The notes: a model not told the origin generated them from the letters alone. Shown: positions 15,038-50,740, counted from the stretch's first letter. The stretch: 64,000 nt of DNA from an uncultured Bdellovibrionales bacterium (GCA_964406815.1 CAYOTC010000003.1:7259-71258); one strand, 5' to 3'. A program made the numbers and translations.

Positions 15038-15682
15038 ATGAAAAGTTTAAACGATTGCATCAATTATTTAAGGCGCAATAGAAATCATGTTGGTTGCATC
15101 ATGGATCTTCCTGAGAAATTCAGAAAAAACAAACTGATTGTTCTAGAGACAGTCAAACAGCTTGCTGAAAATCTTAAACATGTAGATAAGAAATTCCAAT
15201 CAGATAAAGAAGTTGTTCTTGAAGCGGTGAGAGCTGGTGGCGATGGATTTATTTGGGCGGATGAAAAGTTAAAAAATGATAGAAATTTCGCATTGGAAGC
15301 GGTAAAGATTAATAATGCTGCTTTCCAATATGTTTCGAAAATTTTTAAATCAGACAGGGAATTTGTATGGGAAGCAGTCGAGAATTTTTCATATGCACTT
15401 AGGTATTGCTCAACAGAATTCTTGAATGACAAAGAGTTAGTTTTAAAAGCAGTTAGAAATTCAAGCTGGGCATTCCAATATGTCTCCAAAGAATTGCAGG
15501 AAGATGAAGAAATAATTATTGAAGCTTTGCGGACATCAGAAAGGGAAGATGAAGATATAGACTACTTGGTACTCAGGTATGTTTTGGAGGATCTACAAGG
15601 TCACAGAAACATAGCCACCCAAATACTAAGTCGATATCCCCACTTAAAAATGTGGCATCCTCATTTGCTTAAAAATTTGTGA
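15038..15682 (+). CDS. DUF4116 repeat protein
   Basis: Repeated ~30-aa units of the form ...EAV..N..A(F/L)QYVSKE(L/F)..D.E(F/L)V(L/W)... Confidence 0.7.
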   Translation: MKSLNDCINYLRRNRNHVGCIMDLPEKFRKNKLIVLETVKQLAENLKHVDKKFQSDKEVVLEAVRAGGDGFIWADEKLKNDRNFALEAVKINNAAFQYVSKIFKSDREFVWEAVENFSYALRYCSTEFLNDKELVLKAVRNSSWAFQYVSKELQEDEEIIIEALRTSEREDEDIDYLVLRYVLEDLQGHRNIATQILSRYPHLKMWHPHLLKNL

Positions 15683-24339: not shown

Positions 24340-25437
24340 ATGAAAACAAAAATATTATTATTGACCTTTTTGAGCTTATTGATTTTTGGAGGATTTTTAA
24401 TCAATCCCAAAATCAGTAGAGCTGATAATATAACAGAAGATATAATAAATAGTGCCATCAACAATTTGAGCGCTGGCAGTGGCGGTTGCTGTGTTCGTCC
24501 AATATCAAAAGAAGCGGAGATAATAAGCGGAGCTGGCGATTGTATCATCAATGTGGATAATGATAAATGTTTTGCTAGCGGTGGAACTCTTTCAGGCAAT
24601 TGCGCTGGATTAAAAAATTGCGAAGCGGCTGAAACTGCAGACATATTTGATAAATGTTGTGTCCTAAAAAATAAGGCGTCCAATAGCCTTTATGGAACGT
24701 CTTTGAATTGCGACTTGAAAAACGAAACTTTATGTAAGGTTGCTGGCGGAACAATATATAATTGTAAATGTTCAGTTCTTAAACAATGCGATATAAATTT
24801 ATCAGACACAGCTTGTCCGTCAGATAAACCAGCTGCTAAATCAGCTGTATCAACCAGCGGATCAAAAACTCAAATTTTTACAAATCCTCTTGAATACACA
24901 ACACTGGAAGGATTTGTTCAAGTTGTCTTGAATCGTCTAAAAAGCATAGTGGCTATTTTGGCAATTTTGATGGCAGTTCTTGGCGGAGTGATGTATGTTA
25001 TCTCGGCGGGAAATCCGAAATTAGTTACAGCCGCCAAAGCTTGTTGGACTTCTGCGGCTATCGGTTTTGCAATTGTGATTGCCGCTCCATCTTTTCTGAA
25101 AGAAATTGGAGACATTTTTGGACTTACCTCAACCGGCAGTGCCGAAGTGGATAGAGCTCTTTCTCTGTCTCAAATCGCACTTAATATTCTCAATTTCTTA
25201 TTGTCAATAATCGGTATTCTTGCTATAATAATGATAGTCATCGGTGGAATAATGTATATGGTAGATTTCGGAAGTGAGAAACGATCGGAAATGGGAAAGA
25301 AAATTATCGGTTATGCGATTGTCGGATTGGTAGTGGCACTTTCTTCTTTGATATTAGTAAAACAAATAGGAAATATATTGACTCGTGGATCAGAACAAAA
25401 TAATACAAACACTCAAATTGAAGAAAGAAGAACTTGA
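24340..25437 (+). CDS. secreted Cys-rich protein with two C-terminal VirB2/TrbC-like pilin modules (paralog 1)
   Basis: Signal peptide, Cys-rich N-terminal domain, then two copies of the two-TM module AG(I/V)(M/L)Y(I/V)..AG(D/N)...AKK..(T/G)..I(I/V)G.VV.L. Confidence 0.55.
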   Translation: MKTKILLLTFLSLLIFGGFLINPKISRADNITEDIINSAINNLSAGSGGCCVRPISKEAEIISGAGDCIINVDNDKCFASGGTLSGNCAGLKNCEAAETADIFDKCCVLKNKASNSLYGTSLNCDLKNETLCKVAGGTIYNCKCSVLKQCDINLSDTACPSDKPAAKSAVSTSGSKTQIFTNPLEYTTLEGFVQVVLNRLKSIVAILAILMAVLGGVMYVISAGNPKLVTAAKACWTSAAIGFAIVIAAPSFLKEIGDIFGLTSTGSAEVDRALSLSQIALNILNFLLSIIGILAIIMIVIGGIMYMVDFGSEKRSEMGKKIIGYAIVGLVVALSSLILVKQIGNILTRGSEQNNTNTQIEERRT

Positions 25438-25498
25438 TAAAAAAGACAATTCTATAATAGCGATATAATAAAAATAAAAACAGAAAGGAGGTGTGTTT

Positions 25499-25864
25499 AT
25501 GAAGAAAAAAATATTTGCATTGGGAAGCTCAGCAATGGTTTTTATGTTGACATTGGTTCCGTCTATCGCGAAAGCGGCAGAAGGAAAAGGTTTTAATGTT
25601 TCTAATTTGAATCAGGCTCAGGGAGTGGCAAGTGGAACAGCTTCCGATATAGCTTGGAAACTCATCAATTGGCTTTTAGCAATCGTGGGAATTCTGGGCG
25701 TAGCTGGATTTGTGGTAGCTGGAATTCTTTATATACTCGCGGCTGGAGATGATACGAAACTCGTAAATGCCAAGAAAATTATGACCTTTTCGATTGTTGG
25801 AGTGGTAGTGGCGCTTCTCGGATATGTGGCGGTCAGCACGATTAAGAATGTGATAGTGGACTAA
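25499..25864 (+). CDS. VirB2/TrbC-like pilin-type small secreted protein (paralog 2)
   Basis: RBS AAAGGAGG; signal peptide; C-terminus WLLAIVGILGVAGFVVAGILYILAAGDDTKLVNAKKIMTFSIVGVVVALLG. Confidence 0.6.
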   Translation: MKKKIFALGSSAMVFMLTLVPSIAKAAEGKGFNVSNLNQAQGVASGTASDIAWKLINWLLAIVGILGVAGFVVAGILYILAAGDDTKLVNAKKIMTFSIVGVVVALLGYVAVSTIKNVIVD

Positions 25865-25903
25865 GGAAGATTTTTGAATTCAAAACTCTTATTTTTCAAT
25901 AAG

Positions 25904-25951
25904 AAAAAAAGCAATCCTGGTATATCAGGATTGCTTTGTTTTTTATATTAT
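25904..25951 (+). terminator. rho-independent terminator
   Basis: AGCAATCCTGGTATATCAGGATTGCT followed by TTGTTTTTT. Confidence 0.6.
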
Positions 25952-25988
25952 TGTATAATAAAGTAAAATAAGTATTAAAAATAAAAAG

Positions 25989-26441
25989 ATGAAAAAAATA
26001 AAAGTAGCTATAATATCAGCTTTGTTTATCTTCAGTTTTTTATTGCCAAACACGACCCAAGCGATGTCGGATAAATGGAAAAATGTTATTGGCGGCGCGA
26101 TTTTGGGAGGAACTTCAAATTATTTAAGAGAAACTAATGGCAGTAGCGGAAGCTATTATGGCGGTTATTGGGGATGGGGCACCCCTACTAATGAATATGG
26201 TCTTCCTAATAACACGATTACCGGAGTAATAAATATGGTTGTGAATTGGCTTTTGTCGCTTCTTGGAATTTTGGGTATTGCCGGATTTGTCGTAGCTGGA
26301 ATAATGTATATCGTGGCGGCGGGAGACAAAGATTCGATTGATCGGGCAAAAAAAGTAATGACTTTTTCCATAATCGGAGTAGTGGTGGGACTTTTGGGAT
26401 TGGTCGTGGTCAATACCATTGACAGCGTCTTACGTTATTAG
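25989..26441 (+). CDS. VirB2/TrbC-like pilin-type small secreted protein (paralog 3)
   Basis: Signal peptide; Gly/Tyr/Trp-rich region; C-terminus WLLSLLGILGIAGFVVAGIMYIVAAGDKDSIDRAKKVMTFSIIGVVVGLLG. Confidence 0.6.
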   Translation: MKKIKVAIISALFIFSFLLPNTTQAMSDKWKNVIGGAILGGTSNYLRETNGSSGSYYGGYWGWGTPTNEYGLPNNTITGVINMVVNWLLSLLGILGIAGFVVAGIMYIVAAGDKDSIDRAKKVMTFSIIGVVVGLLGLVVVNTIDSVLRY

Positions 26442-26482
26442 TGTTTCAATAATTTTGAAATCAATTCAAAAAAATAAAAATA

Positions 26483-27115
26483 ATGTTTTTTCTTATGCAA
26501 ACAAAGATGATGAAGTTTTTCTTAGGAATGATTTTTTTAAGCGCTATTTTTGCGGGAGTTTCAATTAAACAAGGAGCCGTTTTTGCTGGATGTTGTGTTC
26601 TTGACAATACATCTCCAGATAAAGAAGCCTGCAGGACAGCTCAACAGAAATCTAGTTGTAGTAATACCGAGACATTTTATGAAGAGAGTTGTTCTGAAAT
26701 GTCGCTATGTGAAGCTTTTGCACAAACGACAAATACTACTACAACAAGTGCTCGAGAAGAAGTTTCACAAGAAACTTCAGTTAATTCATCATCTGCAACA
26801 GCTAGTGGAAAAAGCAAAGATACAATACCCGGAGTTACAATTGGTGGAATATTTTATCCTAGTGGCACTAAGCTTCCGGATAATCCAGAGGGGGTTTTCG
26901 GAGTATTAAAAAAAATTATAAATTGGTTGCTTGGTATTGTTGGAACTTTGGCAATTTTGATTTTTATAGTTTCCGGAATTAAATATATTGTCTCTGTTGG
27001 AGATACCAAGGAAGCGGAAAGCGCCAAGAAAATGATGACGTTTGCTATAATTGGGTTAGTGGTGGCTTTGTCAGGATTAATTGTTGTTAATACTATTGAT
27101 AGCATTCTTAAATAG
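26483..27115 (+). CDS. VirB2/TrbC-like pilin-type secreted protein with Cys-rich and Ser/Thr-rich N-terminal region (paralog 4)
   Basis: Start may be the internal ATG at 26507 (MMKFFLG...); C-terminus WLLGIVGTLAILIFIVSGIKYIVSVGDTKEAESAKKMMTFAIIGLVVALSG. Confidence 0.6.
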   Translation: MFFLMQTKMMKFFLGMIFLSAIFAGVSIKQGAVFAGCCVLDNTSPDKEACRTAQQKSSCSNTETFYEESCSEMSLCEAFAQTTNTTTTSAREEVSQETSVNSSSATASGKSKDTIPGVTIGGIFYPSGTKLPDNPEGVFGVLKKIINWLLGIVGTLAILIFIVSGIKYIVSVGDTKEAESAKKMMTFAIIGLVVALSGLIVVNTIDSILK

Positions 27116-27157
27116 AACTTTTAGCTTAGCAATTCCAGATCATAAAATTTTATAATT

Positions 27158-27466
27158 ATGAAAAGTTTTTTTTTACGAATAATTCTTTTAGGGGTTGTCT
27201 TTTTTCCGCAAATGGTTTTTGGCGCGGAGGAAGTTCCCGGAGTAAAAGATCTTTTAATGTCTTTTCTTAAATGGCTTTTGGGAATTTCTGCGATAATAGC
27301 GGTTATCAGTTTTGTTGTCGGAGGCATTCAATATTTGATGTTTTCCGCCGATGAGAAAATGGCAGAGATGGCAAAAAAAACAGTCCTATTTTCAATAATA
27401 GGACTGGTTGCGATTCTTGCGAGTTATATCTTAGTGACTTCAATCAGTAAGATCATTCAAAACTAG
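27158..27466 (+). CDS. VirB2/TrbC-like pilin-type small secreted protein (paralog 5)
   Basis: Signal peptide; WLLGISAIIAVISFVVGGIQYLMFSADEKMAEMAKKTVLFSIIGLVAILAS. Confidence 0.55.
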   Translation: MKSFFLRIILLGVVFFPQMVFGAEEVPGVKDLLMSFLKWLLGISAIIAVISFVVGGIQYLMFSADEKMAEMAKKTVLFSIIGLVAILASYILVTSISKIIQN

Positions 27467-27543: not shown

Positions 27544-28617
27544 CTAGTAGGAATTGATTTTGTAAAGCTGACCTTCAAACACTCCGCTTCCCTCGTGCCC
27601 GATGAGCACGGTTTGTTTTTCAGAAACAGAGAACCGGTCGGTCATTTTTGAATTTCCGTCTACCATTACGAGCATGGCTTTACTCATCTCGTAATCTCCT
27701 TTATCAAGCTCATACTCTTTGTGAGTTGAACCTTCAATCCGGAGAAAGCAGACTTCGTCCCTTTTTGTCATATCAGAGAGTGGAATCATTTTTCCATTCT
27801 TGATATTAGAAAGAAAGATTTGATACTGCTCTGGCAGCGGTTTACTTGGGTTGGCTTTCTGCCATGCTTGGATTTTTTCGATATCAGTATTAATGACATC
27901 TTCCTTTTGCATGGCAATGATCTTGTCAACCTTCGCCACATTCTTGGCAGTCGATGTCGGAATGATTACCGAGGAAATCGCACTGCCGATTCTGGTCTGT
28001 ATGCCGATTTGAGGAAGCAACATCGCAGAGTGAACGAAGAGTAGGCACAGTACGAATACTGATGCTAACCAATTCGTTGCACTAAGAGCTTTCCCTTTGA
28101 AAGCAATAGCAACAGCCACTGCGATTGTTGGGAACAGGACCACAAACATCGGATTATTTCTAAGTGGCAGAACAGGAATAAGCAGAAAAGCAACTATAAC
28201 GAAGAAGTAAATCTGCAGTGATACGTTCCAGAACATCGTTGACAGCGGATTAATAACCACTGCTGCCGATCCCTGGTCGTTATTATTCCTCGGTGTTATC
28301 CGAGAAATTTCAGCTGCTTCTCCCGTAAGAGTGATTGAGGTTATTCTCCTTATATTGAAAAGTGCGAAAGTGCTTAATATTGAGAGAATAAGGCCAAAAA
28401 TGGCAGACAATGTATAATTGTTAAAAATAAGTTGGAATATACATATAGCATAAAGAAATCCAACTAGCCACATAAAAGAGTTGCGTAAACCGCGAAGCTC
28501 TTCTGTTGCCATGCGAGGAAGCACTCCAAGGAAAGCCACTATATTATTCCAGAGATTTGTCATTTTTTCTCCTTTTTTGATTTGGGTGATTTTAGAATTG
28601 ATCGCGGAACCATTCAA
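27544..28617 (-). CDS. polytopic membrane protein, hypothetical (N-terminal multi-TM domain plus C-terminal soluble domain)
   Basis: Six or more hydrophobic helices; likely start at the internal Met (MTNLWNN, 28563); overlaps the upstream gene by 26 nt, so operon-like. Confidence 0.5.
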   Translation of the reverse strand: MNGSAINSKITQIKKGEKMTNLWNNIVAFLGVLPRMATEELRGLRNSFMWLVGFLYAICIFQLIFNNYTLSAIFGLILSILSTFALFNIRRITSITLTGEAAEISRITPRNNNDQGSAAVVINPLSTMFWNVSLQIYFFVIVAFLLIPVLPLRNNPMFVVLFPTIAVAVAIAFKGKALSATNWLASVFVLCLLFVHSAMLLPQIGIQTRIGSAISSVIIPTSTAKNVAKVDKIIAMQKEDVINTDIEKIQAWQKANPSKPLPEQYQIFLSNIKNGKMIPLSDMTKRDEVCFLRIEGSTHKEYELDKGDYEMSKAMLVMVDGNSKMTDRFSVSEKQTVLIGHEGSGVFEGQLYKINSY

Positions 28618-29362
28618 ACCACATAATCGGGTTTATTCGATGCCATTTATTGGTAGCTATCTTAGCTCTCCTGGCAATGGCGCGATTTTCCTTTTTGTTA
28701 TACTGATCATTTATCCAGGTTGTTGCTTTTCCGATTTCATCTCCAATGGAATCAGCGATGGAGTCTATCTTGATCCAAACAGCCTTGGCATTAGATGTTG
28801 ATTTTTCGATTAGTTCTTCCAGTGTTACCTTGTCCTGATTGTTCTTGCCAAAATGCATTATTCTCTGCTCGAGAGCAGCTAGTTTTGCATTTTTGTTCGG
28901 AAGGACGGAAATTCTGAAAAAGATCATCTTCCAAATTTCTTTGGCGAGGATATGTCTTTTGGTAGGATCAGGATCCTCAATGGATTTATCTTCAGCAATC
29001 AGGAAGATTATACCCTTTGCCATTTTTTCCATTTTTTTCAACTTTACGATCTGATCAGGAGCCTTTCCGGTAAAATCAGGAAAGAGCATTTCAGCATGCT
29101 TTTCCAAAAATAGTTCTTTGAGTTCATCGGAGACTTCCGTATTGGGTATATTGGAAAGCGAAGAAATGAAAGCCATTTCATCGTTTCTGTCTCTGCCGTT
29201 TTTTGAAATTTCTATAATTTTCTCTCCTAATTTTTTGGTAAGTTCAGGGTGATTTAAAATGAACTTATCAAATAAAGGCTTTACAAAGACATGTAACGCT
29301 GTCAACCAAGAAACCAATCCTTCAATTTTTCCTCCTAGCATAATTTTTCTCCTTTTCTCCAC
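28592..29362 (-). CDS. hypothetical protein
   Basis: 256-aa ORF, co-directional and overlapping with 27544..28617. Confidence 0.45.
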   Translation of the reverse strand: MEKRRKIMLGGKIEGLVSWLTALHVFVKPLFDKFILNHPELTKKLGEKIIEISKNGRDRNDEMAFISSLSNIPNTEVSDELKELFLEKHAEMLFPDFTGKAPDQIVKLKKMEKMAKGIIFLIAEDKSIEDPDPTKRHILAKEIWKMIFFRISVLPNKNAKLAALEQRIMHFGKNNQDKVTLEELIEKSTSNAKAVWIKIDSIADSIGDEIGKATTWINDQYNKKENRAIARRAKIATNKWHRINPIMWFEWFRDQF

Positions 29363-29665
29363 TTCTCAGTGGAAATGCTATTGATATTATTTTGTCAAAG
29401 AGCCCGACTTCGGCTCATTATATATGTTTGCCTAGTTACCTCCTTTGGTAACACTCTATACTAGCACAAAAAACGAAAAAAGTCAATCGATATTATGGCT
29501 TAAATAAGGAATAAATATTTCTGTATATAAAGGAAGGAGAATTAAGGTGGAAAAAAATATGAGAAAAAACATATTTTTTGGCTTAAATTAAGCTAAAATA
29601 GGCAAAAATCAGACAAAAATGTCTGATTTTTGCCTAAAAATGCTTTATTTAAGGTATTTTTTATA

Positions 29666-29691
29666 GATTCCGGACTAAATCCGGAATGACA
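29666..29691. repeat. short palindromic repeat GATTCCGGACTAAATCCGGAATGACA
   Basis: Family GATTCYGRA-N5-TYCRGAATGACA. Confidence 0.55.
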
Positions 29692-29768
29692 ACTTTTAGT
29701 GTATTTTAATAGGTGGTATTTATAAAAATGGCTTATTTATACTATTTATTATTATTTAACTAGCATTT

Positions 29769-29794
29769 TGTCATTCTGAACTAGTTTCAGAATC
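29769..29794. repeat. short palindromic repeat in inverse orientation (TGTCATTCTGAACTAGTTTCAGAATC)
   Basis: Same family. Confidence 0.55.
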
Positions 29795-29887
29795 TTTTAA
29801 TTTATAAAAAATTTCTTTTTTTATCTTATAAATTAATAAAACTAACCTATTTCAGCTTTTTTTAAATAATTAAAAAATAAATTTTTA

Positions 29888-29913
29888 GATTCCGGATCAA
29901 GTCCGGAATGACA
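29888..29913. repeat. short palindromic repeat GATTCCGGATCAAGTCCGGAATGACA
   Basis: Same family. Confidence 0.55.
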
Positions 29914-30027
29914 GGAATTATTTTTTCAATATAATTTGACATATTCAAAGGTTTTCTGCTAGAATCCGGTTGAAGGATAGTTACTGGAAGTTCGCTTGAA
30001 GCGAACTTTATTTATTAAATGGCTTAA

Positions 30028-30429
30028 TTGCTGAATGGTTATATGGCTGAAAAGAGTGAAAAGAAATATCTTACACTAAATCAGATAGGAGCTTATAGAA
30101 AATCATTTAATTTATCTAATTACGGATGGGATATAATTTTCAAGTGGGATAATTTTTCTAAAAATACTATTGGAAGCCAATTTGTGAGATCATTAGATTC
30201 GATTTCTGCTAATATCGCCGAAGGATTTGGAAGGTACGGAAAGAAAGATAAGATAGTTTTTTATAGAATCGCCAGGGCATCGGTTTATGAATCATTGGAT
30301 TGGTTAGAAAAATCAAGAAGAAAACTTATCAAAGAGAAGGACTATGAATATATTTTTTCAATACTGCAAAATTTTCCGAAAGAAATAAATGCACTTATAA
30401 AATACACAAATAACAATTTATCAATATAA
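30028..30429 (+). CDS. four-helix-bundle protein (family commonly found inside 23S rRNA intervening sequences)
   Basis: SISANIAEGFGRY...FYRIARASVYESLDWL signature. Confidence 0.75.
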   Translation: MLNGYMAEKSEKKYLTLNQIGAYRKSFNLSNYGWDIIFKWDNFSKNTIGSQFVRSLDSISANIAEGFGRYGKKDKIVFYRIARASVYESLDWLEKSRRKLIKEKDYEYIFSILQNFPKEINALIKYTNNNLSI

Positions 30430-31885: not shown

Positions 31886-33874
31886 ATGGCAACGATATTT
31901 ATCCTGGGGGGAGCGGTAATGGCGATAATCTATGGCCTTACTCTCATCGAAAGTATCACCAAACTTCCGGAAGGAAATGAAAAGATGCGCTCAATCGCGA
32001 AAGCGATTCAGGAGGGCGCGAAAGCTTATCTTAATCGCCAATACAAAACAGTGGCGATAGTTGCAGCAGTATTGTTCGTGATAATTTGGTTAATTAAACC
32101 GCTCGGACTTTCAACCGCAGTGGCTTTCATCATTGGGGCTTTCCTTTCAGCATTGGCTGGATATATCGGAATGAATGTTTCCGTGAGAGCAAATGTAAGG
32201 ACAACGGAAGCAGCTCGAGGTGGAATGCAAAAAGCTTTGAATGTGGCTTTTCAAGGAGGAACCATAACCGGACTTTTAGTTGTAGGACTTGCACTTTTAG
32301 GAACAGCCGGTTTTTATTTCATAACCAGAGATATTCATGCTCTCGTCGGATTTGGATTCGGAGGATCATTGATTTCAATTTTTGCTCGTTTAGGAGGAGG
32401 AATTTTCACTAAAGCAGCGGATGTAGGAGCAGACTTAGTCGGAAAAGTGGAAGCAGGAATTCCCGAAGACGATCCGAGAAATCCAGCGGTTATTGCTGAC
32501 AATGTGGGAGATAATGTCGGGGATTGCGCCGGAATGGCAGCGGATCTTTTTGAGACATATTCAGTCACTTCAATTGCGACAATGATTTTGGGTGCGCTTA
32601 TTTTCGGCAATTATGCGGAAAGCGCTATTTTATACCCCCTGGTGCTTGGAGCAATTTCAATCATTGCTTCAATCATCGGAACTTTCTTTGTAAGACTGGG
32701 AAAGAAAAAAAATATAATGGGCGCTCTTTACAAGGGTCTTATCGCTTCGGGAATAATTTCCGCGGTAGCTTTTTATCCGGCGACTAAATATATAATGGAA
32801 GATAATGGAAAATACTCTAGTTTAAATTTATATTTTGCATCTCTTGTCGGATTAGTTGTGACTGGCGCAATGGTTATTATTACAGAATATTACACTTCGA
32901 CGAGCTATAAGCCGGTGAAAGATATTGCCAAAGCATCGCAAACCGGACACGGAACAAATGTTATTGCGGGACTTGCAGTTTCGATGAAATCGACTGCTTT
33001 GCCGATAATTGTGATTGTGGCAGCCACATTGATTTCTTTTGAACTTGCGGGAATATACGGAGTAGCGGTGAGCGCAATGGCGATGCTTTCGATGGCTGGA
33101 ATAATCGTGGCGATTGACGCCTACGGACCGATTACTGACAATGCTGGGGGAATTGCGGAAATGGCGGAACTGGGAGATGATGTGAGAGATATTACTGATC
33201 CATTAGACGCAGTCGGCAACACCACTAAGGCAGTAACTAAGGGTTATGCGATTGCCTCGGCGGCTTTGGCGGCTCTGGTTTTATTTTCCGATTTTACTCA
33301 TAAGATTGTTGGAGATGTGGAATTCTTAATCGATGATCCGAAAGTTTTGGCGGGACTTTTTATTGGTGGACTTTTACCTTATTATTTTGGCGCGCTTTCG
33401 ATGCAGGCGGTTGGCAAAGCGGCCGGGGCGGTTGTGGAAGAAGTGAGGAGCCAATTTAAAAACAAACCCGGAATAATGACGGGAACTGAGAAGCCTGATT
33501 ATGCTAGCGCAGTGGATATTGTGACGAAAGCTGCAATCAAAGAAATGATTATCCCGGCTCTTATTCCGGTAGTTGTTCCGATTTTAGTTTGGGCGCTTCT
33601 GGACATTCAAGGGTTGGGAGGTCTTTTGGTCGGAACGATTGTGACAGGAATATTTGTGGCAATCTCGATGACCAGTGGAGGAGGAGCTTGGGACAACGCC
33701 AAGAAATATATTGAAAAAGGAAATTTTGGCGGCAAAGGTTCATTTGCTCATCAAGCGGCCGTGACCGGAGACACTGTCGGCGATCCATACAAAGATACAG
33801 CCGGACCAGCCATTAATCCAATGATAAAAATCGTTAATATTGTAGCTCTTCTCATTGTCGGTTGTTTGCTCTAG
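31886..33874 (+). CDS. hppA: membrane-bound proton (or sodium)-translocating pyrophosphatase
   Basis: [41 protein letters not shown], and 15-16 TM helices. Confidence 0.9.
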
Positions 33875-42272: not shown

Positions 42273-42344
42273 GCGGGTGTCGTATAGTGGCTATTATATC
42301 AGCCTTCCAAGCTGAGGAGGGGGGTTCGATTCCCCCTACCCGCT
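42273..42344 (+). tRNA. tRNA-Gly (anticodon TCC), used as the integration site
   Basis: Acceptor GCGGGTG/TACCCGC, anticodon stem TCAGC/GCTGA with loop CTTCCAA; the last 17 nt are repeated at 50884..50900. Confidence 0.85.
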
Positions 42345-43949
42345 CAACATAGTAGAAACAGCTTCCAAATGAGCTGTTTTTGCTTTTTCAGAAGCAAATT
42401 CTGCTGGTTCTAACGCGCCAAATTCAACCTTGATCAAATTCACACCGTTTTGGATTAGTTCATATTGTTTTTGCAGTTGAATGCTCAATTTTTGGTCTTT
42501 AAGAACAAAGTTAGAACCTAATGCTCTCAAAATTGCTGACTTATCTTCATAAGTTCCCTCCGAAAACCAATACTTGCTGTAAGTTGCAAACTTAAATGTT
42601 TTTTCTGTTAGATCTATCCATTCGTTTATTCTTTCGTCTAAATTTTTAAGTTCTCGCTGAATCCCGGACTTTTCTTTAAGCAGAACAGATTTCTGTTCCC
42701 TAAATTCTTCGTCGGATAGCAATTCTCTGTTGGCATTATCAGAAGATATGTAAAGCTTGATAAGATTATCTATCCTTTTTGTGCAGTCAATAAACGCTTT
42801 CTGCTGATTTTTAATCAAAAGCTCTCTATTGACACTCTCTTTTTCATTTTCCCTGTTCAAAATTTCAATGGCAAGGTTGAAATAACTTTCTGGTATGGAA
42901 ATACTATCTATAATTTGGAATGCTTGGCTTTCCAGCTCTGAATAGTTTATGGGTTTTTGGTTACAGGTTATTCCGGCTTTTCTTTTTGTGCAACGGTGAT
43001 AGATGTATGAATGTATCTTTCCCTCCGATTTTACATACTTGGTCTTTTCGTCCGCAGTTATTGCACAACCGCATTCTCCACAAAATATCAATCCAGTTAA
43101 AGGAAGTTTCTTATGCTTCGCGCGCGGCTTTCCTTTTCTTCCCAATATTTTCTGAACCTGATCATATTCTTCTGGTGTAATCATTATTTTATGTTGTCCC
43201 TGATAAACTTTTCCGGCGTATTCAAATTCCCCATAGTAAAAAGTGTTTGTGAAAATCCGGTAGATGTGCGACAAGCTCAATCTCGTTTGCCTTTTGTAAT
43301 AGCTGGTGCGAAGTCCCCATTGGTCATTAACTATTTCAGCTATTTGAGGAACTGTATAGTTTCCAGTAAGCATTAGTTCCCACATTTTTCTTACTAAATT
43401 AAATTTTTTCTCATCAACTAAAATTTCCTTGCTTCCCTTATCTTGATACCTGTCATTTAAATATCCTATCGGAGCAAGTCCCGGACGCCAACCCTTTTCT
43501 GCTTTTGATACAAGCCCTCTTTTTACATCTTTGGATAAATCAAGGACAAACTGGTTTGCCATTCCCAATTCAACACTCATCATCATCACATTATCTCCCG
43601 TCCTATATTCGCGTGAGGGCGTCTGAATTGAGCGTAGGGAGCTTTCTTGCAATAACCACTGTATTTCACCCCCATCAATCGGATTTCGGGAAAGGCGGTT
43701 GATTTTCCAACAAAGTATTCCATTTGCTCCGCCTCTTTTAATTTCCTCCAACATCTTATTAAATTCAATTCTGCCGGGAGCTTTGGCTGATTTATTTTCC
43801 TCATAAAAACCAACTACTTCCAAATTAAGCAGTTTGGCGTATTTTTCCAGCTCTTTGCGCTGATCTTCAATGGATTGAATCTGCCGATCTTCTGAATCGG
43901 TAGATTTTCTTAAATACATAAGATATTTAATTTTTTCTGAATTCTCCAT
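42336..43949 (-). CDS. large serine recombinase (resolvase catalytic domain, recombinase domain, Zn ribbon, coiled coil)
   Basis: N-terminus YLRKSTDSEDRQIQSIEDQR with catalytic Ser, ...GILCWKINRLSRN; CxxC pairs (CGECGC...C); C-terminal coiled coil; 3' end overlaps the tRNA-Gly 3' end. Confidence 0.85.
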   Translation of the reverse strand: MENSEKIKYLMYLRKSTDSEDRQIQSIEDQRKELEKYAKLLNLEVVGFYEENKSAKAPGRIEFNKMLEEIKRGGANGILCWKINRLSRNPIDGGEIQWLLQESSLRSIQTPSREYRTGDNVMMMSVELGMANQFVLDLSKDVKRGLVSKAEKGWRPGLAPIGYLNDRYQDKGSKEILVDEKKFNLVRKMWELMLTGNYTVPQIAEIVNDQWGLRTSYYKRQTRLSLSHIYRIFTNTFYYGEFEYAGKVYQGQHKIMITPEEYDQVQKILGRKGKPRAKHKKLPLTGLIFCGECGCAITADEKTKYVKSEGKIHSYIYHRCTKRKAGITCNQKPINYSELESQAFQIIDSISIPESYFNLAIEILNRENEKESVNRELLIKNQQKAFIDCTKRIDNLIKLYISSDNANRELLSDEEFREQKSVLLKEKSGIQRELKNLDERINEWIDLTEKTFKFATYSKYWFSEGTYEDKSAILRALGSNFVLKDQKLSIQLQKQYELIQNGVNLIKVEFGALEPAEFASEKAKTAHLEAVSTMLSG

Positions 43950-44210
43950 AGATATTTAATTTAAGAATACTAAAAGGACGGACTGGTTGACCCAACTTAC
44001 CACGAATGATTTGTCGGCAGTCCGCCCTTTTAGGACGACAAAAAACAAAAATTCGTGGAATTTGATTGGGTCAACACTTAAATTATAGTGTAAATGTTAA
44101 CATTTGTCTACATTTTCTGATATTTTAAACCGTAACAATATTATTTTGTAAATGCTATCATTTGCTATCATATTCAGATATTTTGATATGTATAATACCA
44201 TCATTTACCA

Positions 44211-44459
44211 CTATTCTCTGATATTTTCTATGCGTAGCGCGTATTCTCGTAAACTATCATCTAACAATATCAGTCCTTGATTTTCCACCAAAATTGCCAA
44301 TTCAGTCCAGTTCATACCATATGATATTTTTCTTGCATAGCTATCGCTAAAACCAGCTTTCAATGCAGATCTGTAATAATTATGGCAAGTTTCACTTTCC
44401 GGAGAAAAATAATAGCGCGCAAATTCCAGTTTTCTTTCTGATAGTTTATATCTATTCAC
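44211..44459 (-). CDS. phage terminase small subunit-like HTH protein (Terminase_2-type N-terminal domain)
   Basis: LSERKLEFARYYFSPESETCHNYYRSALKAGFSDSYARKISYGM matches the conserved TerS pattern L(T/S)xKQxxFxxxY...AxxxAGYSxxxAR. Confidence 0.5.
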   Translation of the reverse strand: MNRYKLSERKLEFARYYFSPESETCHNYYRSALKAGFSDSYARKISYGMNWTELAILVENQGLILLDDSLREYALRIENIRE

Positions 44460-44576
44460 AAAATATAAATAATTTATTTACCCTTATTTAGAGGAATAAT
44501 ATAGATTATAGTTATTACTACAGTATTTATCTAAAGTAATGAGGTGCAATTTGTATTACTATAGTATTCAACTTAT

Positions 44577-44891
44577 TTAATGTTCTTTAACTATCGGCAT
44601 ACTTGCGTAATCATACTGCCTTAATACTTCGTCAGAAATCTTTTTCCAAAGCGTTTTTTCAACAAGTAAATATTTAAAAGGCGGAAATCTTCTTTGTGGC
44701 ACTTGAACATTTAACCCACCATATTGGCTTTTCCAAACTGTAAAACCAGTGATTGTAAAATATTGTCCGGTAATCCCTCTGAAAGAAACCGTAGCATTGG
44801 CAAGCAAATTAGGGTGTCTTTTGGAATTTTTGTCTGAAAATGGCTTGACCTTACAAACAAACTCATTAAGATCAATTTGTGTGTTTTGCAT
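44577..44891 (-). CDS. SpoVG-like protein, putative
   Basis: NLLANATVSFRGITGQYFTITGFTVWKSQYGGLNVQVPQRR resembles the SpoVG core (...[23 protein letters not shown]); remembered similarity only. Confidence 0.35.
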   Translation of the reverse strand: MQNTQIDLNEFVCKVKPFSDKNSKRHPNLLANATVSFRGITGQYFTITGFTVWKSQYGGLNVQVPQRRFPPFKYLLVEKTLWKKISDEVLRQYDYASMPIVKEH

Positions 44892-44917
44892 ACTAATTTA
44901 AATTTTAATAATTATTT

Positions 44918-45202
44918 TTAGTTTATTTCTCCCCGCCTCGTTTTTGATAAGGCGTTTAGCCACTTTAAATTGCTTTGTGGCACAAAAATCAGGATAGCAT
45001 CTGGCATAACAGTGCCTCCGGATACAAATTCTCGCTCGTTAATCTTTGCTGGCTTGGGTTCTCTCATAAATCGGCACTTGTCTTGATTCCTACCACTTCT
45101 CAAATGGAGTTCAGGGTCTAATGGACAAAAGTTTTGGGAGCAACTCTTAAAATGCGGACATTTCCCCATATTATCTGTAAATGATTGGCATTGTTTTTTC
45201 AT
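44918..45202 (-). CDS. small Cys-rich hypothetical protein
   Basis: 94 aa with seven Cys (e.g. CPHFKSC, CSQNFC), likely metal-binding. Confidence 0.4.
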   Translation of the reverse strand: MKKQCQSFTDNMGKCPHFKSCSQNFCPLDPELHLRSGRNQDKCRFMREPKPAKINEREFVSGGTVMPDAILIFVPQSNLKWLNALSKTRRGEIN

Positions 45203-45449
45203 AGGATTTTAATCTTAATTTATTAGAAAACGCTTCATAATTTGTTTTTTTGATTGGCTTATAAACCCTTTTTAATAGCCCCACCAAATTTCTGATGCAT
45301 TCAAAAGATTCTTCGGAAGAAATAGCTTGTCCGGTTTCAATTTTATATAGTTTTTGGAATTTTTTTGCGTCAGATTCAGTGATCATTTTTTTAGTTATAA
45401 ATTCTTCCTTTTGTTTCTTTTTGGATTGAGATAAACTTTTTTGGTTCAA
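45171..45449 (-). CDS. small hypothetical protein (overlaps neighbours, phage-like packing)
   Basis: 92-aa basic ORF. Confidence 0.3.
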   Translation of the reverse strand: MNQKSLSQSKKKQKEEFITKKMITESDAKKFQKLYKIETGQAISSEESFECIRNLVGLLKRVYKPIKKTNYEAFSNKLRLKSYEKTMPIIYR

Positions 45450-45624
45450 CCAATAGTTTATTTTGATAAAAATTTTCTAAAATTTTCTCAGTATCCTCTT
45501 GTTTTTCCAAATGGAAAATGCACCGATTAGCATTACTTTTATCAACTTTGATTAGCTGGTGATTGAGATATTGCAAAACTACGCAGATATTTAGATCGGA
45601 AGTTTGAAAAAATTTTCTAATCAT
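45391..45624 (-). CDS. small hypothetical protein
   Basis: 77-aa ORF overlapping 45171..45449 in another frame. Confidence 0.3.
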   Translation of the reverse strand: MIRKFFQTSDLNICVVLQYLNHQLIKVDKSNANRCIFHLEKQEDTEKILENFYQNKLLVEPKKFISIQKETKGRIYN

Positions 45625-45697
45625 AATTTTTGTAACTAAAAAAGCATACTTTCAGTATGCTCTTTTTAATGGTTCTGTCGTTTTTATCTACCTATTT

Positions 45698-46462
45698 CTA
45701 CCTATTCCCATTTTTAAAGTTTCCTAATTCATTTTTTAATTTTGTTATGTCTATCGGATCAATAACCGTTACTTGCTTGATCAATCTAATTTTCTGTTTG
45801 GCGACATTGAATAGATACTTCCTCAAAGCTCCTTTTATTTTTATATCATTCAAAAAATTATTGAAGGGCTTTATTTCCCTTTTTAATTCTTCCTTTAATT
45901 CGCTTTTTAAAAACACTTTTCCATCATTTTCAAATAAAAAGGCGATAATTGAATCATTTGAAGATTCAAAATCTGGTCTTGCAATTAAAATATTATTTAT
46001 TTTTATTTCCCTTGTTTTTTCATTATAGTCCAATCTTAAATCAAATATGGGAGAATTATTTACCTGAAAGTTTTTTAGAAATTCTGCAATTTTTTTTGGA
46101 TAAAATTTGCATTTGGCTCTCAAAAGAATATAATTAACATCTTTAAGATGAGCTTCATTGATCTGTTGCAAATAATCTATTGGATCAAAATACCTTTCTT
46201 CCACCAGTTGGGAATCGTCCGGTTCATATTTTTCAAGTTTATAGCTTACAATAACGTTCTTTCCTTTTAAATATTTGAGTTCATTTTCCTTATCCCACGC
46301 ATAATCAAAATTATCATAATCGCCCAGTATAACATTACCTGTTTGTATGTTTTTGCCAATTCTCTTATTTTTTATCCCTTTTTCTAATTGATCAATAATT
46401 TGTTTTAGAATTACAGGATTTGGCTCGGTGGTTTTTTCTGTTTTCTTGTTTACGTTTGCCAT
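45698..46462 (-). CDS. hypothetical protein (largest non-integrase gene of the leftward module)
   Basis: 254-aa ORF, no recognised motif. Confidence 0.45.
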   Translation of the reverse strand: MANVNKKTEKTTEPNPVILKQIIDQLEKGIKNKRIGKNIQTGNVILGDYDNFDYAWDKENELKYLKGKNVIVSYKLEKYEPDDSQLVEERYFDPIDYLQQINEAHLKDVNYILLRAKCKFYPKKIAEFLKNFQVNNSPIFDLRLDYNEKTREIKINNILIARPDFESSNDSIIAFLFENDGKVFLKSELKEELKREIKPFNNFLNDIKIKGALRKYLFNVAKQKIRLIKQVTVIDPIDITKLKNELGNFKNGNR

Positions 46463-46736
46463 TTTAATGTCATTTTAATTTCTTTTATTTTAACCCTGAT
46501 TTTGCCCAATATCAAGCAAAAAGTTGTTTTTTTGTCTATCTTGTATTAAAGTATAGATGTCTATACATTCACATAAGTTCAGAAGTGGAAACACTATTTT
46601 AGTGTTATTGATCGTGATTTTAAGCGGGCGACTCCGACGACACGATCAGACCACTTCGGTGATTTTGTGAGTGTATAGACCGTCGGGTCGTCCACTCAAA
46701 AGAACTTCCTGACGGCTTAACTATTAAGTCGTTTTT

Positions 46737-47978
46737 ATGTTCAAGAAAATAGTAATTATCCCATTATTTTTACTTCTTCCCCTATTCTCCTACGCCTCTG
46801 ATAATAGACTTTTGGATCAATATGATGAATGGAAAGCGGAGCAAGACGAAAAGACATCAGTAAACCAAGCCGACGAAACCAAACAAGAAAACGGACAACC
46901 CACATTGTATAGAAATGATGATTATAAATTCAGAATAAATTTTCCTGCCGGTTGGGAGTTAAAAGATGGCGATGGCAAACACGTTGTCAAAAAAGCTGTC
47001 AAAGATGGTTGCACTGTCCTTGTTTTGGTTAAAGATTCACAAGAAGAAAAAAACACATTATCCACAAACGAAAGAGCTGAATTAAATTCTTTTGAGTTTA
47101 GCGATTTTTCCGATGAAGAAGCGGATGAGCTCATAAACGAAATGATCAAAGAAAATGAAACTGCTTTCCCTGGTAGTAAAACGATTGAAAAAGGAATTAG
47201 ATATTTGGATAACCGCAAGGCGGGTTATTATAAAGTTTCCACTCCCTATAAAGTAGCTAATATTGAAGCAAAAGCTATTGCTATCAATTATTTGACGATT
47301 CATAAGGGCAGATTTTATCAAATTATTGGATCATACCCGATAGAGCCAGTAACCGAACAAAATAAAGAGCCAGTTATAAATGCTTCTTTAATGACTTTTG
47401 TTTTTGAAGATTGGAACAATCAAGATAATGTTAATTCTATTTCTGAAAATTCAAACAATCCAGTTAAAGAGGCTCTTTTAGATTCTTATGGTGAAAATCT
47501 TAATAACTTTGGATTATTTTTGGCTGTAATTTTAAGCATCTTATTTACTTGGGGGTTTGGTCTTTTAATTCCAGTATTGATTCGCTTTGTTTTTTTGAAA
47601 AGACCTCTTTCAGGGGGGTTATCTTTTTTGATTGTTTTTATCACTTATTTAATCCAGTTTTCAATTCCATATCTTATAGGTGATATAAAAAGTGAGGATA
47701 GACCTCGCATTGCACTAATTCTCGTTGCTTTTGTTGCTTATAAGATATTAAGAAAAAAAGTATCTAATAAAATAAACAATGAAGAAAGCGATATTAGCAA
47801 AGAAGAAATAATTAAATATTGTAAAGAATGTGGCAATAAGATCAATGCTTCATCTACAATTTGCGATAAATGTCATATCCAAAAATCCAAAAAAAGACGG
47901 AAAGAATTATTATTAGCGTTTTTAGCTATTGTCTTGATTACAATGTTAATACTATTTGTAGCCATATTGTTTAGTTAA
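46737..47978 (+). CDS. signal-peptide membrane protein with cytoplasmic zinc ribbon
   Basis: Signal peptide MFKKIVIIPLFLLLPLFSYA; three TM helices; CKECGNKIN...CDKCH; terminal TM. Confidence 0.5.
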   Translation: MFKKIVIIPLFLLLPLFSYASDNRLLDQYDEWKAEQDEKTSVNQADETKQENGQPTLYRNDDYKFRINFPAGWELKDGDGKHVVKKAVKDGCTVLVLVKDSQEEKNTLSTNERAELNSFEFSDFSDEEADELINEMIKENETAFPGSKTIEKGIRYLDNRKAGYYKVSTPYKVANIEAKAIAINYLTIHKGRFYQIIGSYPIEPVTEQNKEPVINASLMTFVFEDWNNQDNVNSISENSNNPVKEALLDSYGENLNNFGLFLAVILSILFTWGFGLLIPVLIRFVFLKRPLSGGLSFLIVFITYLIQFSIPYLIGDIKSEDRPRIALILVAFVAYKILRKKVSNKINNEESDISKEEIIKYCKECGNKINASSTICDKCHIQKSKKRRKELLLAFLAIVLITMLILFVAILFS

Positions 47979-48000
47979 AAATTTCAATAAGAATAAAAAT

Positions 48001-48297
48001 ATGATTTGTAAAAAATGCCAAAAAGAAATAGATGATGATAGCAAATTCTGCGAATTTTGTGGAAATAAATTGGTAGAAAACACCAAGGATATAGCGCACA
48101 GAATTATAAAAACCGAACATAAGGAAGATAAGCTTCGTTTTTATACGAAAAATACAATTTTAATTTTTTCCGTCCTGATGGTAACCAGTTTTTTCCTTGA
48201 GAATTATTTTGGCGATAATGGTCTTATTTTGTCTATTCCAGCAACAATTTTAATAATTTTTATTTATAACAAGATTGCTAAAAAATTTAATTTATGA
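48001..48297 (+). CDS. zinc-ribbon plus TM small protein
   Basis: CKKCQKEIDDDSKFCEFCGNKL then two hydrophobic helices. Confidence 0.45.
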   Translation: MICKKCQKEIDDDSKFCEFCGNKLVENTKDIAHRIIKTEHKEDKLRFYTKNTILIFSVLMVTSFFLENYFGDNGLILSIPATILIIFIYNKIAKKFNL

Positions 48298-48854
48298 AAA
48301 TGATAAAAAACTTTTTTCAAAATAACAGAACTGCTCTGCTTGCAATAGTTATAACAGTAGTAGCAACTTCGGCAGTCGCATACGGTTTTTTTGTGATAAA
48401 AAACGAAAGGAAAAGTGCCAATCAGAGAGTTGAAGCCTTGCAAAAATCAGTGGAAGAATTACAAGCCAAAAATGAGACAAATCAAGAAATAAGCGAAGAG
48501 CCAGAAAAGGATATTCCTGTTGAAGAAACTTCTGTTCAACAATCCCCGATAGTCAAAAAGAGCGCGGTGGTTGCTCCAATAAAAACCGAGGAGGCGGAAG
48601 AAAAGCTAGTATCCTGTGTAGCTTTTAACGGTGATACCCTTAAGGTTAGCAAGGATGAATGTGATGAAATAAAGCAGAAGAATGTTATAGCTCAAAAAGC
48701 GTTGGATAAATATGAAGAATGTATTTCAAGCGCAGAAGAAGAATTTCAAGAAAATTTAAAAAGTGGTTACAGCTCGTCTTATCCGGAAGAATACAATAGG
48801 AGTGTTAATGAATGCGCAGAAGAAAGAAATGCGAAATTAGAAAAACTTTTGTAG
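48294..48854 (+). CDS. membrane-anchored coiled-coil protein, hypothetical
   Basis: N-terminal TM, coiled coil, Cys-containing C-terminus; start overlaps the previous stop (ATGA). Confidence 0.45.
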   Translation: MKMIKNFFQNNRTALLAIVITVVATSAVAYGFFVIKNERKSANQRVEALQKSVEELQAKNETNQEISEEPEKDIPVEETSVQQSPIVKKSAVVAPIKTEEAEEKLVSCVAFNGDTLKVSKDECDEIKQKNVIAQKALDKYEECISSAEEEFQENLKSGYSSSYPEEYNRSVNECAEERNAKLEKLL

Positions 48855-48925
48855 TTTCAGTTTTCTTGATTTCTGGCACATATTGGTGATACCATTAAAT
48901 ATCATACGCCTAAAAGCACACTCAT

Positions 48926-49855
48926 ATGCGCCTTAAATTGAAAAAAGCTATGTTTATAACCAGTGCTTTTTGTGCTGTTTTTTTATTTTCCAGTCCGGCT
49001 TTAGCCCATCCGGGGAAAACCGCATCTGACGGATGTCATTATTGCCGAACGAATTGTGACAAATGGGGCGTTCCGTGGAATCAGAGGCATTGCCACGGCG
49101 GAAGCGTCAGTCCGCCTACTGTAATCCCAAATCCAGCGCCAAGCAACGGATCAGGCAATGGTTCGGCAACTTCCAATACGCCAGTAACAGAAGTCAAAAA
49201 GTTATGCTCTAATAAAGATACTTGCACAGCCAAAGCCAACATTGTTATTGATGGCGACACGATAGTTTTAGATACGGGCGAAAAAGTTCGTTATATTGGA
49301 ATTGATACTTCGGAAACTGTTGATCCGCGAAAGCCAGTCCAGTGTTTCGGAAAAGAAGCGTCAGAAAAAAATAAAGAGCTTGTGGAGGGTAAGGAGGTTA
49401 GATTGGTTAAAGATATTTCTGATAAAGATAAATACGGACGGCTTTTGAGGTATGTTTATATTGGTGATGAATTTATTAACGATTCTTTGGTTAAAAACGG
49501 ATTTGCTCATTCTTCCAGCTATCCGCCGAACATAAAATACCAAGAGCAATTTAGTAAGTCAGAGGAGGAAGCAAGAAACAATAAAAACGGGCTCTGGGCT
49601 GACGGAGTATGCGGAAATCCGGTTAATGCCGAAACGGAAAACAAACCGGCAGAGCAGGAAAATATAGTCAATCAAGAAGAAATTGTTCAAAATCAGCCGC
49701 AAGACAGTGAAGTTGCTCAAACTACAAATAATACGGAGAATGATATGAATAAACCGGAAAGTAGTAGAGCAAGATTTAGCACAAAAGAAAGAATTTTTAT
49801 GTCATTATCCGGTGCAATCGGGGGGATTTATTACTTCGTAAAATCTATATTATAA
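48926..49855 (+). CDS. secreted staphylococcal-type (thermo)nuclease domain protein with Cys/His-rich N-terminal module
   Basis: Signal peptide ...SSPALA; SNase core VIDGDTIVLDTGEKVRYIGIDTSE...GRLLRYVYIGDEFINDSLVKNGFAH; Gln/Asn-rich tail. Confidence 0.7.
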   Translation: MRLKLKKAMFITSAFCAVFLFSSPALAHPGKTASDGCHYCRTNCDKWGVPWNQRHCHGGSVSPPTVIPNPAPSNGSGNGSATSNTPVTEVKKLCSNKDTCTAKANIVIDGDTIVLDTGEKVRYIGIDTSETVDPRKPVQCFGKEASEKNKELVEGKEVRLVKDISDKDKYGRLLRYVYIGDEFINDSLVKNGFAHSSSYPPNIKYQEQFSKSEEEARNNKNGLWADGVCGNPVNAETENKPAEQENIVNQEEIVQNQPQDSEVAQTTNNTENDMNKPESSRARFSTKERIFMSLSGAIGGIYYFVKSIL

Positions 49856-49864
49856 AAACACTCA

Positions 49865-50602: not shown

Positions 50603-50710
50603 TTTTTGGAGAAATTGGCTTCTTATGATAAATTTGGAATATAAAAAAAGTTACTGTTGAACATAAAGAAAGTTCTAACTTCCTCCACAGTTCGGCTCAA
50701 AAAGAAAAAA

Positions 50711-50740
50711 TCCAGGATTTATTCCTGGATTTTTTCTTTT
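50711..50740. terminator. bidirectional rho-independent terminator
   Basis: TCCAGGATTTATTCCTGGA flanked by an A-run and a T-run. Confidence 0.6.

Follow-up and report, generated by a model that had tools for sequence, protein, structure and literature searches.

Pilin arrays of Patescibacteria and the five-gene locus

Patescibacteria make up a large, mostly uncultured share of bacterial diversity and live attached to host cells. The subject of this work is a tandem array of five genes, named P1 to P5 in their order, on the plus strand of a 64 kb stretch of DNA (CAYOTC010000003.1:7259-71258; hereafter the window, meaning the whole stretch that was analysed, in which coordinates are counted unless another locus is named). 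The closest described systems are the arrays of VirB2-like pilin genes reported for the same phylum (PMC12102498, PMC10633639, PMC12857230). Quinonero-Coronel et al. (2025; PMC12102498) applied the profiles PF18895 and PF04956 to 3,035 Patescibacteria genomes and found VirB2-like pilins in 1,948 VirB4-positive assemblies; because the pilins were near virB4 in 1,135 of these, arrays that are unlinked to virB4 are common. In 383 assemblies they counted 441 arrays, which comprise 2-11 pilin genes and abound most in Microgenomatia and Saccharimonadia. Identity within arrays has a mean of 25% and a maximum of 54%. The authors also remarked that the pilin was possibly co-opted from other classes of type IV secretion system (T4SS). 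In Ca. Southlakia epibionticum ML1, which has a six-pilin array, the predicted pilin subunits are essential (Wang et al. 2023; PMC10633639). Only one species has been tested genetically, and in it the T4SS and the pilin array are essential; nevertheless, a pilus has so far not been seen.

A first-pass annotation of the window had read the five genes as a VirB2/TrbC-like pilin array, and this reading was essentially right: the locus is a further instance of the published Patescibacteria pilin arrays and fits them in every respect tested. As that annotation had described, five consecutive open reading frames (ORFs) on the same strand, at 24340-27466 and with spacers of 41-124 nt in the ORF listing of the window, all end in a common module. 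All five are PF18895-positive, which makes them an array by the published definition, namely at least two PF18895- or PF04956-positive genes in tandem or one non-pilin gene apart (PMC12102498). The window array is like the published ones in its PF18895 family, its tandem arrangement, its phylum and its Sec-type signal peptides (the array of TM7x was first called a 'Sec secreted array'), and also in its low internal identity, the modules being 21-55% identical in pairs. It differs in that it comes from Paceibacteria, whereas the published arrays are commonest in Microgenomatia and Saccharimonadia, and in that it lies outside a T4SS cluster, in a housekeeping slot between the gene of a solute-binding protein and nusA. 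It also contains a conserved fused pilin with two modules and a Cys-rich head, a form that is absent from the text of PMC12102498. The locus brings nothing fundamentally new, but it is a clean and well-delimited example from Paceibacteria, and it adds a conserved chromosomal address in Moranbacteria-like genomes, purifying selection shown by a sister strain, and the presence in each array of one ancient pilin that has two modules and a hypervariable Cys-rich head.

The array proteins almost certainly belong to the PF18895 (T4SS_pilin) pilin family. A profile scan of the module, which had been proposed as a check, placed PF18895 above its curated threshold in 5/5 proteins: P1 to P5 score 69.9, 28.6, 33.6, 41.7 and 41.8 bits, respectively, against a gathering score of 26.6, and the match in P1 spans two stretches. 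Because this independent Pfam model matches all five proteins above its gathering score, the array is not a product of chance. Similarity to TrbC/VirB2 (PF04956) recurs as a second match, with E of 1e-4 to 2e-3 for the window proteins. A further match is to the NCBIfam family NF045849, for which P5 is the best window protein (35.0 bits, E 8e-9) and P3 reaches E 8.8e-6, all window proteins remaining below the equivalog cut-off of 40. We scanned 29 modules, taken from this array and related arrays, against Pfam and NCBIfam. Every one matched PF18895; 25 of the 29 matched NF045849 at E<=0.01 (best E 3e-13), 11 matched TrbC/VirB2 (best E 9e-8), and two matched pLS20_p028. Judged from these scores, the modules are related to NF045849 by homology and are not equivalog members of it. 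An exhaustive search with the module profile retrieved 57,876 cluster representatives at E<=1e-3, and NCBI names for the homologues are 'pilin' or 'TrbC/VirB2 family protein'. Within the window, the module profile found no copy beyond the five genes among 673 six-frame ORFs, and tblastn searches of P5 against annotated plasmids and of P3 against phages returned no match.

Other identities were tried and rejected. P5 matches MatE with 27.0 bits, above the gathering score of 24.9, and relatives of P5 carry the same precomputed label; we regard this match as a compositional false positive, because a hairpin of 102 aa cannot be a transporter with 12 transmembrane (TM) segments. The same false positive could mislead automatic annotation. 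Type IV pilins, including the pseudopilins of type II secretion systems, would begin with a class III signal peptide (G↓F/M-xxx-E) and one hydrophobic helix and would end in a globular C-domain; they are ruled out by the classical signal peptides and C-terminal hairpins of the array proteins, none of which matches an N_methyl or pilin family of this kind in Pfam.

All five proteins begin, by hydropathy, with a signal-peptide-like segment, at whose end an AxA-type site is predicted to be cut, and all end in a module of ~80 aa that consists of two hydrophobic stretches and a short loop, in which the residues G...AKK are conserved across modules. Signal peptide, two hydrophobic helices and basic loop together are the layout of TrbC/VirB2 proteins, the cleavage here being a predicted one. 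The N-regions between signal peptide and module had been said to range from nothing to Cys-rich or Ser/Thr-rich, and they do. In P1, a predicted signal peptide (aa 1-28, cut ...ISRA↓DN) is followed by a Cys-rich N-domain at aa ~45-160, with two CC..C..C..C..C units and 14 Cys between aa 50 and 159, then by a Ser/Thr/Pro linker, module A (aa 181-261, with the motifs NPL...AAPSFLKEI), module B (aa 269-348) and a charged C-tail; hmmsearch detects both modules (E 1e-32 and 1e-33), in agreement with the two modules that had been noticed in this protein. P2 has a short N-region after its predicted signal peptide (...SIAKA↓AEG), and P3 a Gly/Tyr/Trp-rich one (...TTQA↓MSD). P4 (...AVFA↓GCC) carries one 6-Cys unit, CC-x11-C-x8-C-x10-C-x5-C, and a Ser/Thr-rich linker. 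In P5 the predicted signal peptide (...MVFG↓AEE) is directly joined to the module, leaving essentially no N-region. The Cys-rich regions of P1 and P4 have similar cysteine spacing, and pairwise BLAST between them gives E of 0.07-0.2; a Cys-rich domain common to the two proteins is suggested by this, not established.

AlphaFold2 models of P1 and P5 agree with the expectation that the C-terminal module is a helical hairpin. P5 was modelled as a signal-peptide helix and a hairpin (29-61 / 66-101) with a mean predicted local distance difference test (pLDDT) score of 76, and the C-terminal half of P1 as two hairpins, 189-259 and 276-364, with pLDDT about 80-91, the Cys-rich N-domain being below 50. 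The hairpin topology of the modules is thus supported by the models. A helical hairpin is, however, too simple a fold, so structure cannot prove the family membership.

Chromosomal address and evolution of the array

From its homologues and its gene order, the host appears to be a Moranbacteria-like Patescibacterium of the class Paceibacteria, which bears out the initial attribution to a Patescibacteria-type bacterium. The named homologues of P1 are from Candidatus Moranbacteria, NusA is 74% identical to that of a metagenome-assembled genome (MAG) locus of Moranbacteria, and the gene order over about 20 kb is common to the window and three independent syntenic loci: L005, on a contig of 635 kb (GCA_030648835.1), L006 (GCA_030699645.1) and L007/L008. 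This order runs from IF2(-), DUF4446(-), a methyltransferase and an ABC solute-binding protein through the pilin array and a variable slot to NusA, a pyrophosphatase, trigger factor, ClpP, iPGM(-) and RNase Y. Identity between the window and these loci is 64-74% for NusA, 47-51% for the solute-binding protein and 35-51% for the pilins over their modules. Because at least four related genomes hold an array in the same slot, between the solute-binding protein and nusA, the array is, as far as gene order can tell, an old chromosomal feature at a fixed address and not the cargo of a mobile element.

A scan of the genome collection with a three-module alignment gave two loci, a Staskawiczbacteria array (L003), in which five single-module pilin genes follow gyrA, and L004. 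The latter has two adjacent ORFs with pilin modules (L004 4643-5352) on a 6 kb contig that is labelled 'uncultured Gammaproteobacteria bacterium'; this points either to contamination of the bin or to members of the family outside Patescibacteria.

Each array of the Moranbacteria type (window, L005, L006 and L007) contains exactly one two-module gene together with four or five single-module genes; the two-module gene opens the array in the window and L007, and L005 and L006 have it at the end. In a tree of the modules, built without bootstrap by neighbour-joining from short sequences, the A modules of four genomes fall into one clade and the B modules into another, and because of these cross-genome clades the fusion is considered to be ancient and its two halves to be non-equivalent. 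Single-module genes also form groups across genomes: P5 groups with genes of L007 and L006, and P4 with a gene of L005 that is its likely orthologue (L005 9166-9609, module 57% identical). The tree further contains local pairs in L005 and L007 and the pair P2/P3, all of them recent duplicates; since P2 and P3 are sisters, they would have arisen by recent duplication within this array.

P1-type homologues with the same architecture number 107. Among 30 P1-type proteins, NPL and AAPSFLKEI are invariant in module A and LNFLLS...GG.MY is conserved in module B, and the Cys-rich heads cannot be aligned and have a several-fold range of length. The first-pass annotation had taken the five genes for paralogs, but P1 belongs to an old, conserved two-module subfamily and is not a paralogue that arose by local duplication.

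The sister strain (L009, about 94% DNA identity to the window) carries an identical five-gene array, with the same gene number and lengths. Between the two strains, the ratio of nonsynonymous to synonymous substitution rates (dN/dS) is 0.09 for P1, 0.02 for P2, 0.18 for P3, 0.23 for P4 and 0.22 for P5, with dS of 0.08-0.25, and because of these low ratios the array genes are regarded as real and maintained. Amino-acid changes affect 25 of 472 residues outside the modules and 13 of 472 inside them, an approximately twofold difference that amounts to a trend (p=0.07). Surface variation by means of the N-domains, which had been suggested initially, is therefore unsupported at the strain level, where the same five genes are found under purifying selection; the pattern is one of slow birth-and-death under purifying selection and not of rapid antigenic variation.

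The same data bear on a stronger form of that idea, in which the genes would be cassettes for antigenic or phase variation, with one expressed pilin gene and silent donors as in Neisseria pilE/pilS. A row of tandem related genes with divergent exposed regions does call such systems to mind, and an analogy to the VirB2 paralogues of Bartonella and Anaplasma has been drawn (PMC12102498). Here, however, no copy lacks a start codon of its own, a signal peptide or a complete module. Purifying selection acts on all of the copies, their number and lengths are unchanged in the sister strain at dS 0.08-0.25, and several of the paralogues have orthologues in other genomes. Moreover, homologous recombination among the modules is implausible because their protein-level identity of 21-55% is too low. 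We consider silent cassettes highly improbable.

Proteins with more modules than P1 occur elsewhere. The global search found 2-17 pilin modules per polypeptide overall, and 6-17 in P0036 (1775 aa, 17 modules), P0016 (1147 aa, 11), P0120 (966 aa, 10), P0009, P0006 and P0008; the sequences of P0006, P0008 and P0016 are true head-to-tail hairpin repeats. Such multi-module 'polypilins' are not mentioned in the text of PMC12102498.

A probable T4SS-dependent pilus and other readings

On balance we think that the five genes probably form a chromosomal array of VirB2-like pilin-family proteins that are assembled into a T4SS-dependent pilus. In this model, each protein would be exported by Sec and would lose its signal peptide at the AxA-type site, after which the helix-loop-helix module would sit as a hairpin in the cytoplasmic membrane with both of its ends outside. 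The basic loop (G...AKK) would face the cytoplasm as long as the subunit is stored in the membrane, and would come to line the lumen once it is part of a filament. Because both ends of the hairpin would be outside, the variable N-regions (Cys-rich, Ser/Thr-rich or Gly/Tyr-rich) would be extracellular. A T4SS of the monoderm type (VirB4, TrsD, VirB3/PrgI, VirB6), with its genes at another place in the genome, would then pull the subunits out of the membrane and polymerise them to a pilus or a pilus-like stalk. The shaft could consist of the short pilins P2, P3 and P5, and P4 and P1 could provide surface-exposed heads; P1, which would be a covalent heterodimer of two old and distinct modules with a fast-evolving, disulfide-rich head, would be the best candidate for a specialised minor subunit, be it a tip, a nucleator or an adhesin. 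The finished structure may serve contact or exchange with the host cell that carries the bacterium. The steps of Sec export and hairpin formation draw on sequence and models, and T4SS assembly, the division of labour and host contact are carried over from existing knowledge about VirB2/TrbC pilins and the T4SSs of Patescibacteria.

Known pilins with this layout are VirB2 of the T-pilus, TrbC of RP4 and TraA of F. The array proteins share with them a long signal peptide, two hydrophobic helices, a short basic loop and a small size, together with a profile similarity that is weak but consistent and strongest in the related modules (E 9e-8, as above). They differ in having many paralogues, extra N-terminal domains, fused multi-module forms, a monoderm host and no adjacent virB operon. 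The archaeal Ced/Ted pili (CedA1/TedC; PDB 8dfu) are similar in that a VirB2-like helical-hairpin pilin is used where there is no outer membrane, but they belong to another domain of life and show no sequence similarity to the array. The Aeropyrum pernix conjugation pilus 8dfu was the sole pilin in the Foldseek lists, with a match to a window model that is not significant (probability 0.54, E 2.5, TM 0.56 on the target, 75 columns). Mbov_0395 / MMCAP2_0565, the Mycoplasma protein of NF045849, found on integrative and conjugative elements (ICEs), is likewise a two-helix protein of 80 residues and belongs to a monoderm, wall-less conjugation system of the MPF-FATA type; it is, however, a single gene on a mobile element, whereas the window has a chromosomal array whose proteins are below the 40-bit cut-off. 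This sequence link to a 'pilin-like' family of monoderm ICEs bears on the question of whether the pilin was co-opted from diderm systems.

Several results speak against a T4SS-dependent pilus. A VirB2-type pilus has not yet been observed on any Patescibacterium, and a review of 2025 refers to it as an 'intriguing possibility' (PMC12857230). The PF04956 matches are below the gathering score of 27.9 in all five proteins (P1 22.4, P3 18.9 and P4 19.0 bits; P2 and P5 not listed), so the TrbC/VirB2-like character first given to the module stands as a recurring second match but not above the threshold of that family. Foldseek searches of the PDB with the array models gave a best E of 0.47, and sequence profile searches of the PDB with the module returned no solved pilin, only spurious matches to membrane and designed proteins. 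None of VirB4, VirB6, VirB8 and VirD4 was found among the ~48 window ORFs scanned against Pfam over the 64 kb, which confirms that VirB4, VirD4 and VirB6 genes are not adjacent, as had been noted, and extends this to the rest of the window; in L005-L008, the DNA up to 10 kb from the array likewise holds no gene for a T4SS ATPase or channel. Finally, the division of labour among P1-P5 is a matter of pure inference.

Other observations favour a link to a T4SS. In a part of Table S1 of PMC12102498, 13 of the 15 Moranbacteria assemblies are VirB4-positive. In L006, the gene directly upstream of the pilin array (L006 6794-7957) encodes an SLT lytic transglycosylase (VirB1-type, PF01464), and residues 68-134 of this SLT protein are a divergent pilin module (E 1e-8). 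The counterpart of the SLT protein in L005 (7181-7672) has the pilin module and no SLT domain, and the window is without an equivalent of the SLT-pilin gene.

Neither in the window nor in four related genomes are T4SS genes linked to the array, and this would also suit membrane-anchored surface proteins that do not polymerise, in which the hairpin is merely an anchor and the N-regions are displayed as adhesins or receptors independently of any T4SS. Such proteins would also account for the predicted extracellular N-regions being the most variable parts and for no pilus having been observed on Patescibacteria, and molecules with 2-17 modules are easier to picture as polytopic membrane proteins than as subunits of a regular helical filament. 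We nevertheless hold this explanation to be unlikely. In P5 and P2 there is hardly anything that could be displayed, and yet both are under strong purifying selection (dN/dS 0.22 and 0.02), and the part of the proteins that is conserved is the module, with invariant residues in its loop, as would be expected of a surface for polymerisation or for interaction with a machine. In addition, the sequence links lead to the conjugation pilin families PF18895, TrbC and NF045849, and the Saccharimonadia arrays lie inside an essential T4SS cluster.

It is also conceivable that the array proteins work within a T4SS but not as a pilus, that is, as envelope-spanning channel or stalk components (a VirB2/VirB3-like lining) of a monoderm T4SS that makes no extended pilus. 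Small proteins with two TM segments (PrgI/TrsC, VirB3-like) occur in monoderm MPF-FATA systems, VirB3 is weakly matched by P5 (E 0.024), and the modules match the family of the wall-less Mycoplasma ICEs, NF045849, in 25/29 cases and pLS20_p028 in 2/29. The hosts of Mycoplasma ICE and pLS20 conjugation are not known to make conjugative pili. On the other hand, five to seven different subunits per genome, some of them with large extracellular heads, exceed what the lining of a channel needs, the VirB3 match of P5 is not significant, and separate VirB3/PrgI homologues have been detected in Patescibacteria (PMC12102498). Taken together, a role confined to the interior of the T4SS seems quite improbable.

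Under the reading that we prefer, a T4SS-dependent pilus, the conserved two-module pilin with its variable Cys-rich head provides a concrete hypothesis, namely that it is a specialised subunit, and this could guide structural modelling, proteomics and cryo-electron tomography. One could go further and suppose that a genomically distant VirB4 builds a heteropolymeric pilus in trans and that proteins of the P1 type are its dedicated tip, nucleator or adhesin, and, more broadly, that polypilins represent an undescribed way in which Patescibacteria build envelope structures or filaments of the T4SS type. In the same vein, it could be that the module arrived with a monoderm MPF-FATA system like that of the Mycoplasma ICEs and was not co-opted from diderm T4SSs. 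We put these extended proposals forward as speculative and rather doubtful.

Array features, neighbouring genes and other observations

The features of the array and of its surroundings are collected in Table 1.

Table 1 Coordinates of the pilin array, its predicted signals and other features of the window
Feature	Position	Strand	Description
P1	24340..25437	+	two-module pilin-family protein, 365 aa
P1 module A	24880-25122	+	
P1 module B	25144-25383	+	
P2	25499..25864	+	single-module pilin-family protein, 121 aa from ATG 25499; ORF opens at GTG 25493 (123 aa)
Terminator-like hairpin	25908..25937, then GTTTTTTATA, element to 25947	+	13-bp stem with 5 GC pairs, between P2 and P3; pattern match
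Promoter-like site, 5' of P3	25942..25969	+	TTTATA-16-TAAAAT; putative, weak consensus match in AT-rich DNA
Extended -10-like motif TGTATAAT	25952-25959	+	inside the promoter-like site 5' of P3; putative, weak consensus match
P3	25989..26441	+	single-module pilin-family protein, 150 aa
P4	26483..27115	+	single-module pilin-family protein, 210 aa from first ATG
P5	27158..27466	+	minimal pilin-family protein, 102 aa
Polytopic membrane protein	27544-28617	-	357 aa; no family match
256-aa protein	28592-29362	-	no family match
Membrane H+-pyrophosphatase	31886-33874		PF03030, 908 bits; after nusA
DUF4116-repeat protein	15038-15682		214 aa; six DUF4116 repeats (234 bits)
tRNA-Gly(TCC), 3' end	42321-42344		
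Repeat of tRNA-Gly(TCC) 3' end	50877-50900		21/24 bases matching, 17 contiguous
Large serine recombinase	42336-43949	-	Resolvase + Recombinase + Zn_ribbon_recom
SNase-domain protein	48926-49855		

For P2, the ATG appears to be a more likely start than the GTG that opens the ORF, because GGAGG lies ~10 nt upstream of it, and a gene of 121 aa is also called in L001 and L009. For P4, a start at 26495 or 26507 is more likely than one at the first ATG, 26483; the counterpart in the sister strain is called as 206 aa. The terminator-like hairpin and its T-tract between P2 and P3 suggest that P1-P2 and P3-P5 may be separate transcription units, and the putative promoter-like site lies upstream of P3.

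Convergent to the pilin array is a pair of orphan genes, encoding the proteins of 357 and 256 aa. The polytopic membrane protein that had been pointed out downstream on the other strand is thus present, but it is not a conserved partner of the array. Neither protein of the pair has a counterpart in L005-L008, and hhalign to the L006 neighbour gave a probability of 0.5%. Only two relatives of the 357-aa protein were found. The more distant one, 39% identical, is found at the same position, with a pilin gene on one side and nusA on the other, and the gene beside it encodes a C-terminal motif in common with the 256-aa protein; the orphan pair as such recurs in only one other lineage (L010 4592-6396, L011 4154-5958). 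We also considered the pair as partners of the system, for instance VirB6-like ones, and rejected this in view of the lack of a family match and the absence of the pair from 3/4 syntenic lineages. The two genes fill a variable slot beside the array.

Between the window and an otherwise near-identical strain, the tract 28592-30429 is hyper-divergent, with the 256-aa protein 55% identical (dS about 2) and a 23S_rRNA_IVP-family protein 78% identical, and the genes that flank the tract are 92-99% identical with dS of 0.08-0.29. The tract looks as if recombination had replaced one allele by another within the variable slot that separates the array from nusA.

Further downstream, the gene after nusA encodes a membrane H+-pyrophosphatase in the window, and at the same position the syntenic relatives have a soluble inorganic pyrophosphatase (PF00719) or, in L007/L008, a DHH/DHHA2-family protein. 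This is a replacement by a non-homologous gene of the same function at a fixed locus. On the other side of the array, the gene with DUF4116 repeats lies amid housekeeping genes.

A probable integrated element of ~8.6 kb occupies 42273-50900. The 3' end of tRNA-Gly(TCC) is repeated at the far end of this interval, and the gene of a large serine recombinase abuts the tRNA gene, an arrangement that points to integration in tRNA-Gly(TCC). The GC content drops to 0.31 at 44-48 kb, within the interval, and the cargo comprises the SNase-domain protein and several ORFs without a family.

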